The position numbers and the translations under genes were made by a program. From NCBI GenBank assembly GCA_023511655.1, contig JAIMBB010000002.1, positions 928-64,927 of the forward strand: a stretch of 64,000 nt of DNA, written 5' to 3'. Shown in pieces: positions 14,023-36,015 of the stretch; positions within the stretch are counted from its first letter, which is position 1; each line of letters opens with the position of its first letter. The DNA comes from Anaerolineae bacterium. GTDB lineage: Bacteria > Chloroflexota > Anaerolineae > J036 > Brachytrichaceae. The notes beneath the pieces are model-generated. The model was not told where the DNA came from. It was given only the letters and a program-made list of their open reading frames with translations, and made no database searches.

Positions 14023-15900
14023 TCAGGCAAGAACCGCCGCTCCTCTGTCCACATCCTTCCCTTTCATCAGCGCGTCCTCGTCAATCACATCCGCACCGCG
14101 CGCTTCCTGGTCACGGAATTGCAGGTTGTACAGGGCGCGATATTCGCCATTCAGCGCATACAGTTGCTCGTGCGTGCCCTCCTCGGCAACGCGCCCGTCC
14201 TTGAGCACGACGATCTTGTCTGCGTTCTTCACCGTGCTCAGCCGCTGTGCGATGACGATGCTGGTGCGGCCCTTCATCACTTGGGCCATCGCCTGCTGGA
14301 TCACTGTCTCGGTCTGCGTGTCCACCGCGCTGGTCGCTTCGTCCAGGATCAGGATGCTCGGGTTCATCAGCACGGCGCGCGCCAGCGCCACGCGCTGTCT
14401 CTGTCCGCCGCTTAATCCGACGCCGCGCTCGCCAACGACGGTGTCGTAGCCCTTGGGCAGTTTTTCGGCGAACTCGTGCACCTGAGCTATCTTGGCCGCG
14501 GCGATCACCTCGTCGTCGGTCGCGTCCGGCTTGCCGAAACGGATGTTGTCTTTCAGCGATGCGCTGAACAAGAAGGTTTCCTGGGGCACGATGGCCATGC
14601 GGCTGCGCAGGTCGGCCAGCCGATACTCCCGCACATCCACGCCATCCACCAGCACGCGCCCGCTGTTCACGTCGTAGAAACGGGGCACGAGGTTGATAAC
14701 CGACGATTTGCCGCTGCCCGTCCCGCCGAGGATGACTACCGTTTGTCCCGGCTCCACCGTCAAGTTCAGCCCGCACAACACGCTCGTATCTGGATCGTCG
14801 GGGTAGCTGAAACAGACGTTGTCGAATTCGACGCGCCCGACTTGATGACCTGACGACCTGATGACTTGCGATCCGGTCATCATGTCGTCAGGTCGGTCGG
14901 GTCGGTCAGGTTGGTCAAGTCGGTCAGGTCGCGCTGGATCACGAATCGTCTCCTCCGCATCGGCGATCTCGAACAGGCGCTTGGCCGACGCAACGGCCTG
15001 CCGCGAGATGCTGATGAACCAGCCCATCAGCCGGATCGGCCAGATCAGCGACCAGATGTACCAGGTGAAAGCTGTGAACACGCCGAGCGTGAGCGCGCCG
15101 TTCACGATTTGCAACGAACCGACCAGGATCAACAGCAGGAACGACACGCCGCTGATGAAGTCCATGGCGGGGAAGGCGTTGGCCTCCAGCCGTCCGCGCT
15201 CGATGTTCTTCTGTCGATTGAGCGCGTTTTCGCGGGCGAACTGCATCACCGCGTAGGGTTCGCGCCCAAAGGCCTTCACCACCCGAACGCCGCTCACGTT
15301 CTCTTGCAGCACGCTGGTCAACCGGCCCATCTGCTCGCGCACGGCGTCCCAGGCCGGGTCGAGCCGCAGGCGAAAGCGGGCGATCGGGAAGTACATCAGC
15401 AGCATCGGCGCCAGCACGATCAGCGTCAGCTTCCAGTCCAGGCTGAGCAGCACGACCAGCGTGAAGGCGAAAGTGCTAATCTCGGTGACCATGGCCGTGA
15501 AGCCGAAGGCCACGAACTGCTCGATGCCGTCCATGTCGCTCAGCATCCGGCTCATGATCTGGCCGGTCGGCATGGTGGTGTAGTACGAGAACGGCTGGTA
15601 TTGCAACTTGCGGTACAGGCTGTTGCGCAAATCGCGCACCACGTCGGTGCCGATCATGCCCTGATACACGCCCTGGAGGTAGAAGAACAGGCTGCGTAGC
15701 GCAGCGACGCCTACCAGCACCAGGCACCAGAACAGCGTGGCTTGCAGGTCAAGCGCGATCACGCCTTGGTCCACCGCAAAGCCGAGCAATTGCGGCACCA
15801 TTAGGTTGGTGACCAGGGCGCCGATGGTGAACACCAGCACCCATACGATGCGCCGGCGGTAAGGGCGCGCGAAAGGCAGCAGGCGTTTCAAGTATTCCAT
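14023..15900 (-). CDS. ABC exporter, fused permease/ATPase half-transporter (carries an in-frame repeat insertion)
   Basis: 625 aa. Six-TM domain, Walker A GGTGSGKS, signature LSGGQRQ, Walker B ILILDEATS. Confidence 0.9.
   Translation of the reverse strand: MEYLKRLLPFARPYRRRIVWVLVFTIGALVTNLMVPQLLGFAVDQGVIALDLQATLFWCLVLVGVAALRSLFFYLQGVYQGMIGTDVVRDLRNSLYRKLQYQPFSYYTTMPTGQIMSRMLSDMDGIEQFVAFGFTAMVTEISTFAFTLVVLLSLDWKLTLIVLAPMLLMYFPIARFRLRLDPAWDAVREQMGRLTSVLQENVSGVRVVKAFGREPYAVMQFARENALNRQKNIERGRLEANAFPAMDFISGVSFLLLILVGSLQIVNGALTLGVFTAFTWYIWSLIWPIRLMGWFISISRQAVASAKRLFEIADAEETIRDPARPDRLDQPDRPDRPDDMMTGSQVIRSSGHQVGRVEFDNVCFSYPDDPDTSVLCGLNLTVEPGQTVVILGGTGSGKSSVINLVPRFYDVNSGRVLVDGVDVREYRLADLRSRMAIVPQETFLFSASLKDNIRFGKPDATDDEVIAAAKIAQVHEFAEKLPKGYDTVVGERGVGLSGGQRQRVALARAVLMNPSILILDEATSAVDTQTETVIQQAMAQVMKGRTSIVIAQRLSTVKNADKIVVLKDGRVAEEGTHEQLYALNGEYRALYNLQFRDQEARGADVIDEDALMKGKDVDRGAAVLA
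14836..14930. repeat. Octamer/nonamer tandem-repeat block inside the ABC exporter CDS
   Basis: TGAYGACC units followed by GTCRTCA and GTCGGTCAG units. These are the same families as 9871-10024. The block encodes RPDRLDQPDRPDRPDDMMTGSQVIRSSGHQV in the TMD-NBD linker. Confidence 0.85.
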
Positions 15901-16016
15901 TTCAGGTTGTGAACGTCGTTTGGTTGAAAGATTCCGCCGCGGAGGCGGTACGCGAACAAGAGATCGGACAGCACCGGTGAGCCGACCCGCCCGTGGATCG
16001 AAGCAGCCGAAGGGGA

Positions 16017-16052
16017 CAACGAAAAGCCACAGGCGGGGACTGCGCCTGTGGC
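16017..16052 (-). terminator. Intrinsic terminator
   Basis: Minus-strand RNA: GCCACAGGCG (16052-16043), a 7-nt loop, CGCCUGUGGC (16035-16026), then UUUUCGUU. Confidence 0.65.
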
Positions 16053-16080
16053 TCGGTTCAGATGGGGAGGCTTGATTTTC

Positions 16081-16179
16081 TCAGCGCATCACCAACGACG
16101 GGCGGTAGGCGCAGTACGGCAAGGTGAAAGCGGCATCGCCACTCAGCCGGATGCGGATCGGCATGTTCATGCTTGCCAT
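16081..16179 (-). CDS. 32-codon ORF (MASMNMPIRIRLSGDAAFTLPYCAYRPSLVMR), candidate leader peptide or small protein
   Basis: Own promoter and terminator. GGAGG at 16197-16193 (13 nt before ATG 16179). Stop at 16083-16081. Not in the ORF track because it is under 60 aa. Confidence 0.4.
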   Translation of the reverse strand: MASMNMPIRIRLSGDAAFTLPYCAYRPSLVMR

Positions 16180-16239
16180 CGGTTTTTCTGCGCCTCCTCT
16201 ATCGTGATTTGCAGCCGCGCCTTGGGCGCGACGCAAGGC

Positions 16240-16268
16240 ATTCTATCGAATCGGGAGAGGAAAGTCAA
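16240..16268 (-). promoter_or_regulatory. Sigma-70-like promoter TTGACT-17nt-TAGAAT
   Basis: Minus strand: -35 TTGACT (16268-16263), a 17-nt spacer, -10 TAGAAT (16245-16240). A 6-bp 5' hairpin (16230-16216) follows. Confidence 0.5.
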
Positions 16269-16658
16269 TCACCGGAGAAAGCGGAAGCCCGGCAGGCCCA
16301 TCAACCTGGCTCATAAATGAGCCGTGGATTGGACAACATCCTTGATTGAAACGCTGAAGCCAGTTAGCGTTTCGCGGGTCGGAACCCTGCCGCTTGTGCT
16401 TCTTCTGGTGTGCAAAACCGGAGATCGCCATCTGTTCTAACCCATCTCTGAAGAGGCAGTTTTCAGAGTTGGGTGGCATGTCTAGGCGGTAAAAAGGACC
16501 TCCTCATTGGGCTTGTCAATTAGCCAGCTGAACCCGCTCCTCAGCATTGCGTTTGCTCCGAATACCATGTGGATATCACAACCAAAACGAACGCAACCAC
16601 ACAGCCAAAAGAGGCGCCGGCCTGCCGAGAGCAAGCACAATCGTCACATCGCCAGGGC

Positions 16659-17096
16659 TCATTCGCCGATGTCCTCGTTCCACAGATCGGGCCGCGAGGC
16701 GATGAATTCCTCCATCAACTGGATGCAGGTGGGGTCGTTGAGGATGACCAATTCCACCCCCCGGCTGCGCAGATAATCTTCCGGCCCGCGAAAAGTTTTG
16801 TTCTCGCCGATGATGATCTTGGGGATTTTGTAGAGCAGGGCGGTGCCGCTACACATATCGCAGGGCGAGAGCGTGGAATAGAGTATCGCCCGGCGATAGT
16901 CGCTGGCCTTCAGCCGGCCGGCATTCTCGATGCAATCCATCTCAGCATGAAGGATGGCGCTGCCCTTTTGCACGCGCCGGTTGTGCCCGCGCCCAACGAT
17001 GCGCCCATCAATCACCAGCACCGAGCCGATTGGAATGCCGCCCTCGGCCAGGCCGAGCTTGGCTTCTTCGATCGCAGCTTGCATGAATTCGTCCAT
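16659..17096 (-). CDS. Cytosine deaminase, CDA-fold (yeast Fcy1-type)
   Basis: 145 aa. Zinc motifs HAE and PCDMC. End-to-end resemblance to Fcy1 (GGIPIG, GRGHN.R.QKGSA.LH.E, TLSPCDMC.G, C-terminal RP..W.EDIGE). Confidence 0.85.
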   Translation of the reverse strand: MDEFMQAAIEEAKLGLAEGGIPIGSVLVIDGRIVGRGHNRRVQKGSAILHAEMDCIENAGRLKASDYRRAILYSTLSPCDMCSGTALLYKIPKIIIGENKTFRGPEDYLRSRGVELVILNDPTCIQLMEEFIASRPDLWNEDIGE

Positions 17097-35016: not shown

Positions 35017-36015
35017 ATGAACCCCACCCTCACCGCCATTCCCGGCCTGAAAGTGGGCCATTGGACGAATCGCGAATGCGGCACGGGTTGCACGGTCGTG
35101 CTGTGCCCCGAGGGCGCAGTGGCCGGCGTAGATATCCGCGGCGGCGCGCCAGGCACGCGCGAGACGCCGTTGCTCGAACCGACCAGCGCGGTCGAGAAGG
35201 TGCATGCCGTGCTGCTGAGCGGCGGCAGCGCCTATGGCCTCTCGGCAGCCGATGGCGTCATGCGCTGGCTGGAGGAGCGCGGCTATGGCTTCGACGTCGG
35301 CGTGGCGAAGGTGCCTATTGTGCCGGCGGCCATCTTGTTTGATCTGCCGGTGGCCCGCGCCGACGTGCGACCGGATGCAGCGGCCGGATACGCAGCGTGC
35401 GAAGCGGCCACCGATGCCCCCGTCGAACAAGGCAACGTCGGGGTGGGCACGGGCGCCACATGCGGCAAGGCGCTTGGCTTCGCGCAGGCGACGAAGGCTG
35501 GCGTCGGTTCGGCGGCGATCCGCCTGGCGAGCGGTGCCATTGTCGCGGCGCTGGTCGCCGTCAATGCCTTCGGCGACGTGATTGACCGACACACCGGCCG
35601 CATCATCGCCGGCGCGCGCAAGCCCGATGGCAGCGGCTTCGCCGACACGATGGCTTACCTGGCGAGCCTGGACGATTTGACCATCGCCCGCCTGGCCGAG
35701 CGGCTCCGTGGTCAGAACACCACCCTGGCTGTCGTAGCTACCAACGTCGCCCTCAGCAAGAACCACACCATTAAGGTGGCGCAAATGGCGCACAACGGCC
35801 TGGCCCGCGTCATCCGGCCGATCCATACCATGCTCGACGGCGACACCATCTTCGCCTTGTCGCTGGGCGAGCTGCGCGCCGACGTGAGCTTGCTGGGCGA
35901 GCTTGCCGCCGACGCCGTTGCGCAGGCCGTCGTCAACGCCGTGCTGGCCGCCGAGCCGTTGGGCGGGTTGCCTTGCGCGCGGGGGTTCCTGCCCGAGCAG
36001 AGGGACGAGTTATAA
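35017..36015 (+). CDS. P1/S58-family aminopeptidase (DmpA-like)
   Basis: 332 aa. N-terminus AIPGLKVGHWTN...GCTVVL and GAPGTRE are typical of DmpA/BapA-type Ntn hydrolases. Confidence 0.85.
   Translation: MNPTLTAIPGLKVGHWTNRECGTGCTVVLCPEGAVAGVDIRGGAPGTRETPLLEPTSAVEKVHAVLLSGGSAYGLSAADGVMRWLEERGYGFDVGVAKVPIVPAAILFDLPVARADVRPDAAAGYAACEAATDAPVEQGNVGVGTGATCGKALGFAQATKAGVGSAAIRLASGAIVAALVAVNAFGDVIDRHTGRIIAGARKPDGSGFADTMAYLASLDDLTIARLAERLRGQNTTLAVVATNVALSKNHTIKVAQMAHNGLARVIRPIHTMLDGDTIFALSLGELRADVSLLGELAADAVAQAVVNAVLAAEPLGGLPCARGFLPEQRDEL

Follow-up and report, generated by a model that had tools for sequence, protein, structure and literature searches.

What is the function of a compact cassette, consisting of a promoter, a 32-codon open reading frame (ORF) and a predicted intrinsic terminator, that precedes an ABC exporter operon in an Anaerolineae bacterium? 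The cassette, hereafter the leader, lies in a 64,000-nucleotide stretch of contig JAIMBB010000002.1 (the window), and all of its coordinates are given on the minus strand. An earlier interpretation of this DNA, made without database searches (the sequence-only reading), had proposed a leader-ORF attenuator, in which translation of the short ORF decides whether the terminator or a competing antiterminator forms. RNA folding, conservation in 17 relatives and the lack of an internal promoter-like site all support this proposal. On this computational evidence we think it probable that the leader is a ribosome-dependent transcription attenuator gating a resistance-like operon, its most likely inducing signal, according to our folding models, being ribosomes that stall on the start codon or within the first half of this reading frame.

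The predicted promoter consists of the -35 hexamer TTGACT (16268-16263) and the -10 hexamer TAGAAT (16245-16240), separated by 17 nt, and predicts a transcription start at ~16233. It is the sole sigma-70-like match in a consensus scan of 13-19 kb, but as chance would be expected to yield ~1.2 of them across this region, the match alone proves nothing. Transcription would first produce a hairpin, GUCGCGCC-CAA-GGCGCGGC (P0, 16232-16214), which had been described as having 6 bp and which in the minimum free energy (MFE) fold has 8 bp. The Shine-Dalgarno (SD) sequence GGAGG (16197-16193, read from the sequence) is followed by an ATG at 16179-16177, which opens the ORF MASMNMPIRIRLSGDAAFTLPYCAYRPSLVMR of 32 codons plus UGA (16179-16081, stop TGA at 16083-16081); when re-read, the promoter, SD, start and stop were all found to have been placed correctly. 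The predicted terminator (16054-16018) begins after a further 28 nt. Its GC stem, GCCACAGGCG (16052-16043) and CGCCTGTGGC (16035-16026), encloses a 7-nt loop and is followed by TTTTCGTT. The 10-bp stem reported earlier is indeed present as a core, which our scan extends to 12 pairs (stem-loop 16054-16024) by A-U and G-U pairs, with the U-tract UUUUCGUU at 16025-16018. It is the best of seven terminator matches in a consensus scan of 13-19 kb, where 5.1 are expected.

We regard conservation as the decisive evidence against a chance arrangement, the evidence from the window alone being mixed. Relatives were gathered via the exporter protein, and those found come only from Chloroflexota metagenome-assembled genomes and metagenomes (Thermoflexales, Candidatus Roseilinea, 'Anaerolineae'). 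Among them are 17 loci with a leader of the window's type (W-type), from Thermoflexales/Roseilinea-like Chloroflexota with exporters that are 75-99% identical. The complete cassette occupies the same position in 17/17 loci. Every one of them has TTGAC(N), a -10-like hexamer at a spacing of 16-18 nt, the SD GGAGG, an AUG 13-14 nt after GGAGG, an ORF of 31-40 codons, a UGA 28-31 nt ahead of the terminator, a terminator with a U-tract, and 121-215 nt from there to the exporter ATG. The first five letters of the -35 hexamer are invariant, and sequence similarity among the relatives starts exactly at this hexamer; the genes further upstream vary between genomes. The cassette therefore belongs to the exporter operon. 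In none of the 17 loci did consensus matching detect a promoter-like site between the terminator and the exporter ATG, nor did it do so in the interval 15901-16016 of the window, where the sequence-only reading had allowed for an exporter promoter.

How could the leader switch between terminated and full-length transcripts? Nine nucleotides within the ORF, ACTGCGCCT (16115-16107), had been noted as complementary to the terminator arm and loop, and the match to AGGCGCAGT (16047-16039) is exact (9/9). The first of these sequences is part of a switch segment, seg2 (CUUGCCGUACUGCGCCU, 16123-16107, codons 20-25); its antiterminator (AT) partner, seg3 (AGGCGCAGU, 16047-16039), makes up half of the 5' arm of the terminator plus its loop. 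The proposed mutual exclusion of terminator and AT is borne out by folding, with cores of similar strength, but a third partner had been overlooked: seg1 (AGGCGCAG, 16195-16188) overlaps the SD and is a direct repeat of seg3. In the MFE fold of the 218-nt leader (-91.6 kcal/mol, z = -4.1; 0/200 shuffles equally stable) the in-ORF segment is paired not with the terminator but with GGAGGCGCAG (16197-16188), that is, with the SD and the bases following it, and the terminator forms at the same time. The start codon and the bases next to it, AUGGCAAG (16179-16172), pair with CUUGCCGU (16123-16116), and AUCACGAU from the 5' untranslated region (UTR) pairs with the final ORF codons, GUCGUUGGUGAU. Together these helices make up an anti-antiterminator (AAT), whose 5' strand (16212-16172) includes the SD, seg1 and the start codon and is partnered by 16123-16085; the distal part of the 3' strand (16106-16085, codons 25-32) is defined by the MFE fold and by covariation in helices 2-3. 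An apical hairpin, GUGGC-GAU-GCCGC (16143-16129), is formed in the MFE fold by Ser-Gly-Asp-Ala codons of the ORF.

The competing cores are of similar strength, -16.6 kcal/mol for seg1:seg2 and -15.9 kcal/mol for seg2:seg3. The whole AAT duplex is worth -37.3 kcal/mol, the extended AT -19.0 kcal/mol and the terminator hairpin -22.5 kcal/mol. Of the dinucleotide-shuffled versions of the ORF, 0.9% contain a segment of at least 8 nt with complementarity to both the SD strand and the 5' arm/loop of the terminator. As seg2 can pair either with the SD/AUG strand or with the 5' arm and loop of the terminator, the pairing amounts to a three-way switch, and the predicted leader is an element of three states (AAT, AT and terminator), not two.

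Folding of the 17 relatives links these states to the position of a ribosome. Free full-length RNAs formed the terminator in 17/17 cases and the AAT pairing in 16/17. When the SD and AUG were blocked by a ribosome footprint and the RNA was cut before the 3' arm of the terminator, the seg2:seg3 helix appeared in 17/17 MFE structures. With a sliding footprint and only the RNA ahead of it free to fold, the AT was allowed at P-site codons 1-17 and never from ~codon 20 on, again in 17/17. A ribosome at the UGA would cover ~16100-16068, between seg2 and seg3 and ~14 nt before the terminator stem. We infer from this a rationale for the span of the ORF: it must extend beyond seg2, allowing this segment to be removed or isolated by a ribosome that meets no obstacle, yet end before the terminator.

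In the mechanism that we propose, transcription would begin near 16233 and three mutually exclusive pairings would compete around seg2. In the absence of a ribosome, seg2 and the 3' end of the ORF would be bound to the SD/AUG strand, the terminator would form and the polymerase would halt at ~16020. Normal translation would have the same outcome, with the ribosome crossing seg2 and parking at the UGA between seg2 and seg3. A ribosome held at the start or at ~codons 1-17 by a translation inhibitor, however, would occupy or separate the SD/AUG strand and leave seg2 free; seg2 would then pair with seg3 as soon as this is transcribed, making the 5' arm of the terminator unavailable and allowing read-through into the exporter/ABC-F operon. 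Induction by ribosome stalling is argued for by the gene content of this operon, which combines an ARE-like ABC-F with exporters and GNAT acetyltransferases; gene sets of this kind are controlled by ribosome-stalling sensors elsewhere.

The predicted structure was tested by mapping the MFE fold of the window onto a MAFFT alignment of the 17 sequences, using 3' partners slid by 1-3 columns and column shuffles as controls. Pairing was preserved in 82.7% of cells, compared to 34-48% with slid partners. Both sides had changed in 21 pairs, and there were 70 compensatory cells, compared to 32.8±4.7 in the shuffles (0/500). Compensatory changes are found in AAT helices 2-4 (among them AUCAC/GUGAU, AUCUUUG/CAAAGAU, CCGGC/GCCGG, CUUUGACAA/UUGUCAAAG and UUUGGCAA/UUGCCAAA), and the outer AAT helix has been replaced wholesale between clades, for example from ACGA/UCGU to UGAU/AUCA. 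RNAalifold, run on the same alignment, recovered only helices that are in register; because the register of the outer AAT helix shifts between clades, we read this helix in each sequence and via the mapped MFE fold. P0 (helix 1) exists in ~9 relatives, with 91.8% of cells paired and compensatory changes in four pairs. The apical hairpin (helix 7; 82.4% of cells paired) persists through G-U changes and two compensatory pairs. The terminator stem (helix 10) is 97% paired and nearly invariant, and covariation thus speaks neither for nor against it. In the 9-bp AT helix, 92.8% of cells are paired, compared to 12-46% with slid partners. These patterns of substitution indicate that the structure of the leader RNA is under selection.

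There are a number of observations that weigh against an attenuator of this kind, the first of which concern the AT helix. It shows almost no covariation within the W-type family, which is explained by the invariance of seg2 (near-invariant across the 17 leaders). One clade (loci L005/L006/L025/L030/L031) has a central A·C mismatch in this helix, and in L029 and L013 it is reduced to only 5-6 contiguous pairs. When the free RNA is cut before the 3' arm of the terminator, at least 11 AT pairs are present in the MFE structure of 7/17 sequences even without a footprint; the thermodynamic balance between the states is thus close and not clear-cut. To our knowledge, moreover, neither the coupling of transcription and translation nor intrinsic termination has been characterised in this clade.

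The lack of covariation in the AT helix would also be expected if the leader were a constitutive, unregulated 5' structure, such as a leaky terminator or an mRNA-stabilising leader that sets a low basal level of expression, with the seg2/seg3 match being incidental to the seg1/seg3 repeat. The double complementarity, with p ~0.01 within the window alone, does not speak strongly against such an accident. What makes it very unlikely in our view is that the ORF keeps its boundaries with respect to seg2 and the terminator, that the terminator loop bases serving the AT alone (GCAGU) are kept in most sequences, and that the three-way complementarity recurs in leaders of unrelated sequence. Such leaders (a-type) precede the exporter in L009, L027, L028 and L032, where the exporter is 63-65% identical to that of the window. 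They consist of TTGACA-17-TAGAAT or TATAAT, a strong SD, an ORF of 31-37 codons and a stop 27-35 nt before a terminator. An in-ORF anti-SD of the UUGCUCC family is complementary to the SD strand GGAGCAA (-22 to -25 kcal/mol), and the in-ORF segment is also complementary to the 5' arm/loop of the terminator (GAGCAA..., -14 to -19 kcal/mol). Between L027 and L028 the a-type AT helix changes from UUGCUC/GAGCAA to UCUGCUC/GAGCAGA, with a compensatory replacement of U-A by C-G.

The second group of adverse observations concerns translation of the ORF. The three codon positions differ little in entropy (0.76/0.72/0.90), and efficient initiation would call for a shorter distance between SD and AUG than the 13-14 nt found here. 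Frame +2 is open as well in 13/17 sequences, so that openness of the ORF is in itself weak evidence of translation. All three observations would fit an untranslated structured leader RNA, either riboswitch-like or controlled by a protein or small RNA (sRNA), in which the ORF is a by-product of GC-rich sequence. Such an element would also account for the strong conservation and covariation at the RNA level, for a peptide that is barely constrained and for the use of the SD as a helix strand. We nevertheless consider an untranslated leader unlikely. Within the ORF, the only indels are -3 nt (L013) and +24 nt (L029), while indels of 1-2 nt fall just outside it, between SD and AUG, downstream of the stop and within the terminator loop. 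Neither the AUG nor the UGA changes position in any of the 17 sequences, and the unrelated a-type leaders have an SD and an ORF, too. The apical region is hypervariable and accommodates the 24-nt insertion, which is unlike an aptamer. A search of 14-19 kb against Rfam 15 at E up to 10 gave nothing at 16018-16233, its sole matches being chance ones in coding regions. In the complete genome of Ca. Roseilinea, the gene caller itself predicted a 32-aa leader ORF. As a side observation, L002 and L003 have an additional in-frame AUG two codons upstream, at the canonical SD spacing of 7 nt; the spacing in a-type leaders is 7-9 nt.

The strongest single argument that selection acts on translation, and not on the peptide, comes in our view from a second set of leaders. 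L009, L027 and L028 have two leaders per operon, in the order a-type leader, exporter, b-type leader, ABC-F. The b-type leaders (L009 6032-6250; L027 6902-7111; L028 7043-7255) have their own promoter and two tandem terminators. They are homologous to the window leader (nhmmer E ~1e-7) and contain TTGCCGTATTGCGCCTG. A 1-nt indel just upstream shifts the frame of this motif, which reads ...FPCRIAPVAR... in the b-type and ...LPYCAY... in the window; an ATG-to-stop ORF of 34-36 codons is nevertheless retained over the same span, with its stop 25-28 nt before the terminator. The shift of frame under a preserved ORF span suggests that selection acts on the RNA motif and on its being translated, not on the peptide, which is difficult to reconcile with an untranslated leader. 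In each case an ORF of ~44-51 aa, ending in GVFAI, follows the b-type leader and directly precedes the ABC-F gene.

The role that the sequence-only reading assigned to a leader peptide therefore needs to be qualified: a translatable frame is retained, but the peptide sequence is barely constrained and the frame of the motif differs in the b-type. Only M1, G14, L20, P21, C23 and A24 are invariant in the 17 peptides, and a Pfam search with the 32-aa peptide gave no match. Given a peptide so poorly conserved, the case for translation rests on the SD and AUG, indels in multiples of three, the fixed stop, the ORFs of the analogous a-type leaders and the frame-shifted homologue. Taken together, the comparisons suggest that translation across the motif and the RNA itself are constrained and that the peptide product is not; a conserved functional peptide was rejected on the basis of the nearly flat codon-position entropy.

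The same evidence bears on the idea that the cassette is a free-standing small gene, producing a ~215-nt sRNA or a small peptide that is secreted or modified, such as a Cys-containing product resembling a ribosomally synthesised and post-translationally modified peptide (RiPP), and connected to the exporter by function and not by regulation. The small ORF is flanked by a promoter and a strong terminator, LPYCA(C/Y) is conserved in W-type peptides, and genes for ABC exporters and acetyltransferases adjoin. However, the LPYCA codons coincide with the RNA switch segment, and the same nucleotides encode PCRIAP in the b-type; the a-type peptides are unrelated. The exporter has only ABC_membrane and ABC_tran domains and no peptidase C39 domain, and there is no RiPP-modifying enzyme in the gene string. 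The lack of a Pfam match to the peptide is a further point against a small gene. With no promoter-like site after the terminator in 17/17 loci, the exporter would in any case need read-through, and the leader always accompanies the exporter while its upstream neighbours vary. We therefore regard a small gene as quite improbable, and a RiPP or bacteriocin precursor was rejected on the grounds of the frame-shifted homologue and the gene content.

A further point against the attenuator reading is the absence of the leader from a sister lineage. The sequence-only reading had named loss of the ORF or the complementarity in close relatives with the downstream operon as refuting the proposal. Both are kept in the 17 W-type loci, but L004 and L023, with an exporter that is 85% identical, have neither a leader nor an ABC-F gene (upstream of 3016 in L004 and of 5001 in L023); these operons, and that of L026, have the order exporter-GNAT-exporter without ABC-F. 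No leader was found in L007, L008/L017 and L011/L018, either. The leader is thus not obligatory for this exporter family. In the sister lineage its loss coincides with remodelling of the operon and a change of the region upstream; to us this suggests that regulation has been solved in another way, and we do not take it as evidence against function. Given that the leaderless sister operons lack ABC-F, the presence of the leader tracks the larger, resistance-like operon.

Might the leader sense amino acid starvation? The trpL attenuators of Proteobacteria, which are discussed in PMC4191407, likewise use alternative 1:2, 2:3 and 3:4 pairings that are set by the position of the ribosome; their region 1 lies inside the ORF and contains the regulatory Trp codons. 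A trpL/hisL-type attenuator that detects a shortage of charged tRNA through runs of regulatory codons would share the overall layout of leader ORF and terminator with the window. Here, however, region 1 is the SD/AUG strand, there is no conserved run of codons, the peptides vary freely, and the downstream genes encode exporters, ABC-F and acetyltransferases instead of biosynthetic enzymes. On these grounds an amino-acid biosynthesis attenuator was rejected; we consider it extremely unlikely.

The best reading, by analogy, is that the window leader works like the experimentally established systems of vmlR, bmrB and mefAL/msrDL, combining the AAT logic of vmlR with an ORF of the size of bmrB; the analogy is one of function. 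In Bacillus subtilis vmlR, a 3-codon upstream ORF (MIN) is located in an AAT hairpin, which is followed by an AT, a terminator and a further hairpin that sequesters an SD; the AAT is broken by lincomycin-stalled initiating ribosomes (PMC9226507). The window leader has the same three overlapping structures, with an AAT that contains the leader ORF and whose base would be opened by a ribosome stalling on or close to the start, so that the AT can form and the terminator is bypassed. Additional structure after the terminator and an ARE-type ABC-F product complete the similarity. The differences are that the ORF has 31-40 codons here and extends over the entire 3' strand of the AAT, that the SD is an AAT strand here and single-stranded before stem-loop 1 (SL-1) in vmlR, that the first regulated gene here encodes an ABC exporter, and that vmlR is from Bacillota and our leader from Chloroflexota. 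The likeness is architectural.

The leader of bmrB, also from B. subtilis, has 53 codons that must be translated for antibiotic-induced read-through into the bmrCD ABC exporter genes, and terminator, AT and AAT structures have been predicted for it (PMC4191407). The window leader resembles it in having an ORF of tens of codons, the same three predicted structures and two genes for ABC half-transporters in the operon, to which ABC-F and GNAT genes are added here. The ORF of bmrB encloses all three structures, whereas here the terminator is 28 nt past the stop and the 5' strand of the AAT precedes the start.

The streptococcal mefA-msrD operon, which encodes both an efflux pump and an ABC-F, has two leader ORFs, mefAL and msrDL, the latter being subject to feedback by MsrD itself (PMC10314930). 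Efflux pump and ABC-F genes are combined in the window as well, and the ribosome-mediated transcription attenuation established there is what we propose here; the pump is of the MFS family (MefA) there and an ABC exporter here. Two leaders in series, a 'double lock', is the layout of L009, L027 and L028; the window operon has the first leader only. MsrDL itself is unlike the window leader: it has 6 aa, senses cladinose macrolides via the nascent chain and has no AAT, the stalled ribosome blocking the terminator directly. It is a possibility, suggested by this analogy, that the ABC-F of the window feeds back by clearing the stalled ribosome from the leader.

The use of the SD as an AAT strand, the position of the terminator outside the ORF and the origin from Chloroflexota distinguish the window leader from these systems. 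It represents a new family, the principle of attenuation itself being established. A literature search found no described Chloroflexi/Chloroflexota leader of this kind, which is weak negative evidence. Ribosome-sensing attenuators of ABC-F and ABC exporter genes have been characterised mainly in Bacillota and Actinomycetota, and if our reading is correct, they extend to another phylum. These uncultured, Thermoflexales/Roseilinea-like Chloroflexota would then turn on their exporter, ABC-F and acetyltransferases only under ribosome inhibition, which would be a sign that chemical warfare of an antibiotic-like kind takes place in their communities and that intrinsic resistance there is inducible. 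The a-type and b-type leaders provide an unusually clean natural experiment, in that the same switch occurs in two reading frames and leaders of unrelated sequence follow the same three-way logic, with ORF span and pairing appearing to be selected and not the peptide. The leader could also serve as a search model for inducible resistance operons in metagenomes, and it flags a small gene that is mostly overlooked by annotation pipelines.

The regulated genes form a string on the minus strand, and the earlier placement of the exporter start at 15900 and of the genes following it was confirmed by Pfam and NCBIfam. The first gene encodes an ABC half-exporter of 625 aa (15900-14023; type I, ABCB-like; Pfam ABC_membrane and ABC_tran). 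It is followed by a small transmembrane (TM) ORF of 51 aa with a single hydrophobic stretch, MEWVIGAAIAVVSFVTIVIAAITIRR... (13940-13785), an ABC-F of 693 aa (13753-11672; NCBIfam NF000355, 'ribosomal protection-like ABC-F', 441.7 bits at a cut-off of 380), a two-domain GNAT (11596-10559), a second GNAT (10562-10008) and a second ABC half-exporter of 617 aa (9857-8004), the last three assigned by Pfam/NCBIfam. The gene order is identical in the Ca. Roseilinea genome. Both half-exporters are of type I, their nearest relatives in the PDB being P-gp, TM287/288, TmrAB and Sav1866. Among PDB structures, EttA, YbiT and Uup are about as close to the ABC-F as LsaA, VmlR and Lmo0919, and the two GNATs show weak similarity to MshD and AAC(6'). 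Judged by these sequence matches, the operon encodes a heterodimer-type ABC exporter, an ARE-like ABC-F and GNAT acetyltransferases, and is resistance-like. In the relatives, ORFs of 45-56 aa are called in the place of the small TM ORF. The first exporter carries a low-complexity insert rich in Pro, Asp and Arg, PARPDRLDQPDRPDRPDD, at residues ~325-345, between its TM and nucleotide-binding domains, and this insert splits many of the NCBIfam alignments in two.

The 5' UTR of the exporter that remains after the terminator (16017-15901) lacks a promoter-like site, and the ATG at 15900 is not preceded by an SD, either in the window or in any relative. It includes a conserved block, CCACGGGCGGGUCGG (15996-15982), that is a near-repeat of the 5' arm of the terminator and complementary to the 3' arm. 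In the RNAalifold structure, GGCGG of this block can alternatively pair with CCGCC of a downstream CCGCC-loop-GGCGG hairpin (15949-15934). The conserved blocks and the SD-less exporter ATG may constitute a second, translational gate. A wider scheme would include any of the following: a cascade of seg2, the 15996-15982 repeat and the CCGCC/GGCGG hairpin that gates translation of the exporter; action in trans of the terminated ~215-nt RNA or its peptide; and, in the relatives with dual leaders, separate responses of the exporter and the ABC-F to different classes of translation inhibitor. Any of these would amount to modular, clade-wide sensing of translation stress, an idea that we put forward tentatively and consider rather unlikely. 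As to action in trans, rnTrpL and peTrpL of Sinorhizobium are known to act in this manner.

Searches for additional copies and competing features around the leader gave few matches. An nhmmer search found exactly one copy of the leader in the window, and a motif search returned only 16107-16122 and a chance match with three mismatches. A segment at 35771-35862 on the plus strand, with E 0.04 to the leader profile, was rejected as a chance match; it sits inside a 332-aa ORF (35017-36015). Two further ORFs, one of 90 aa on the plus strand (16048-16320) and one of 78 aa (16243-16479), were treated as spurious. The latter has no Pfam match and overlaps the leader promoter, and for these reasons is probably not a gene. 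Upstream of the leader promoter, a spacer of ~390 nt (16270-16658) separates it from a deaminase gene (16659-17096, minus strand); the GC content of this spacer is ~0.50, compared to 0.61.

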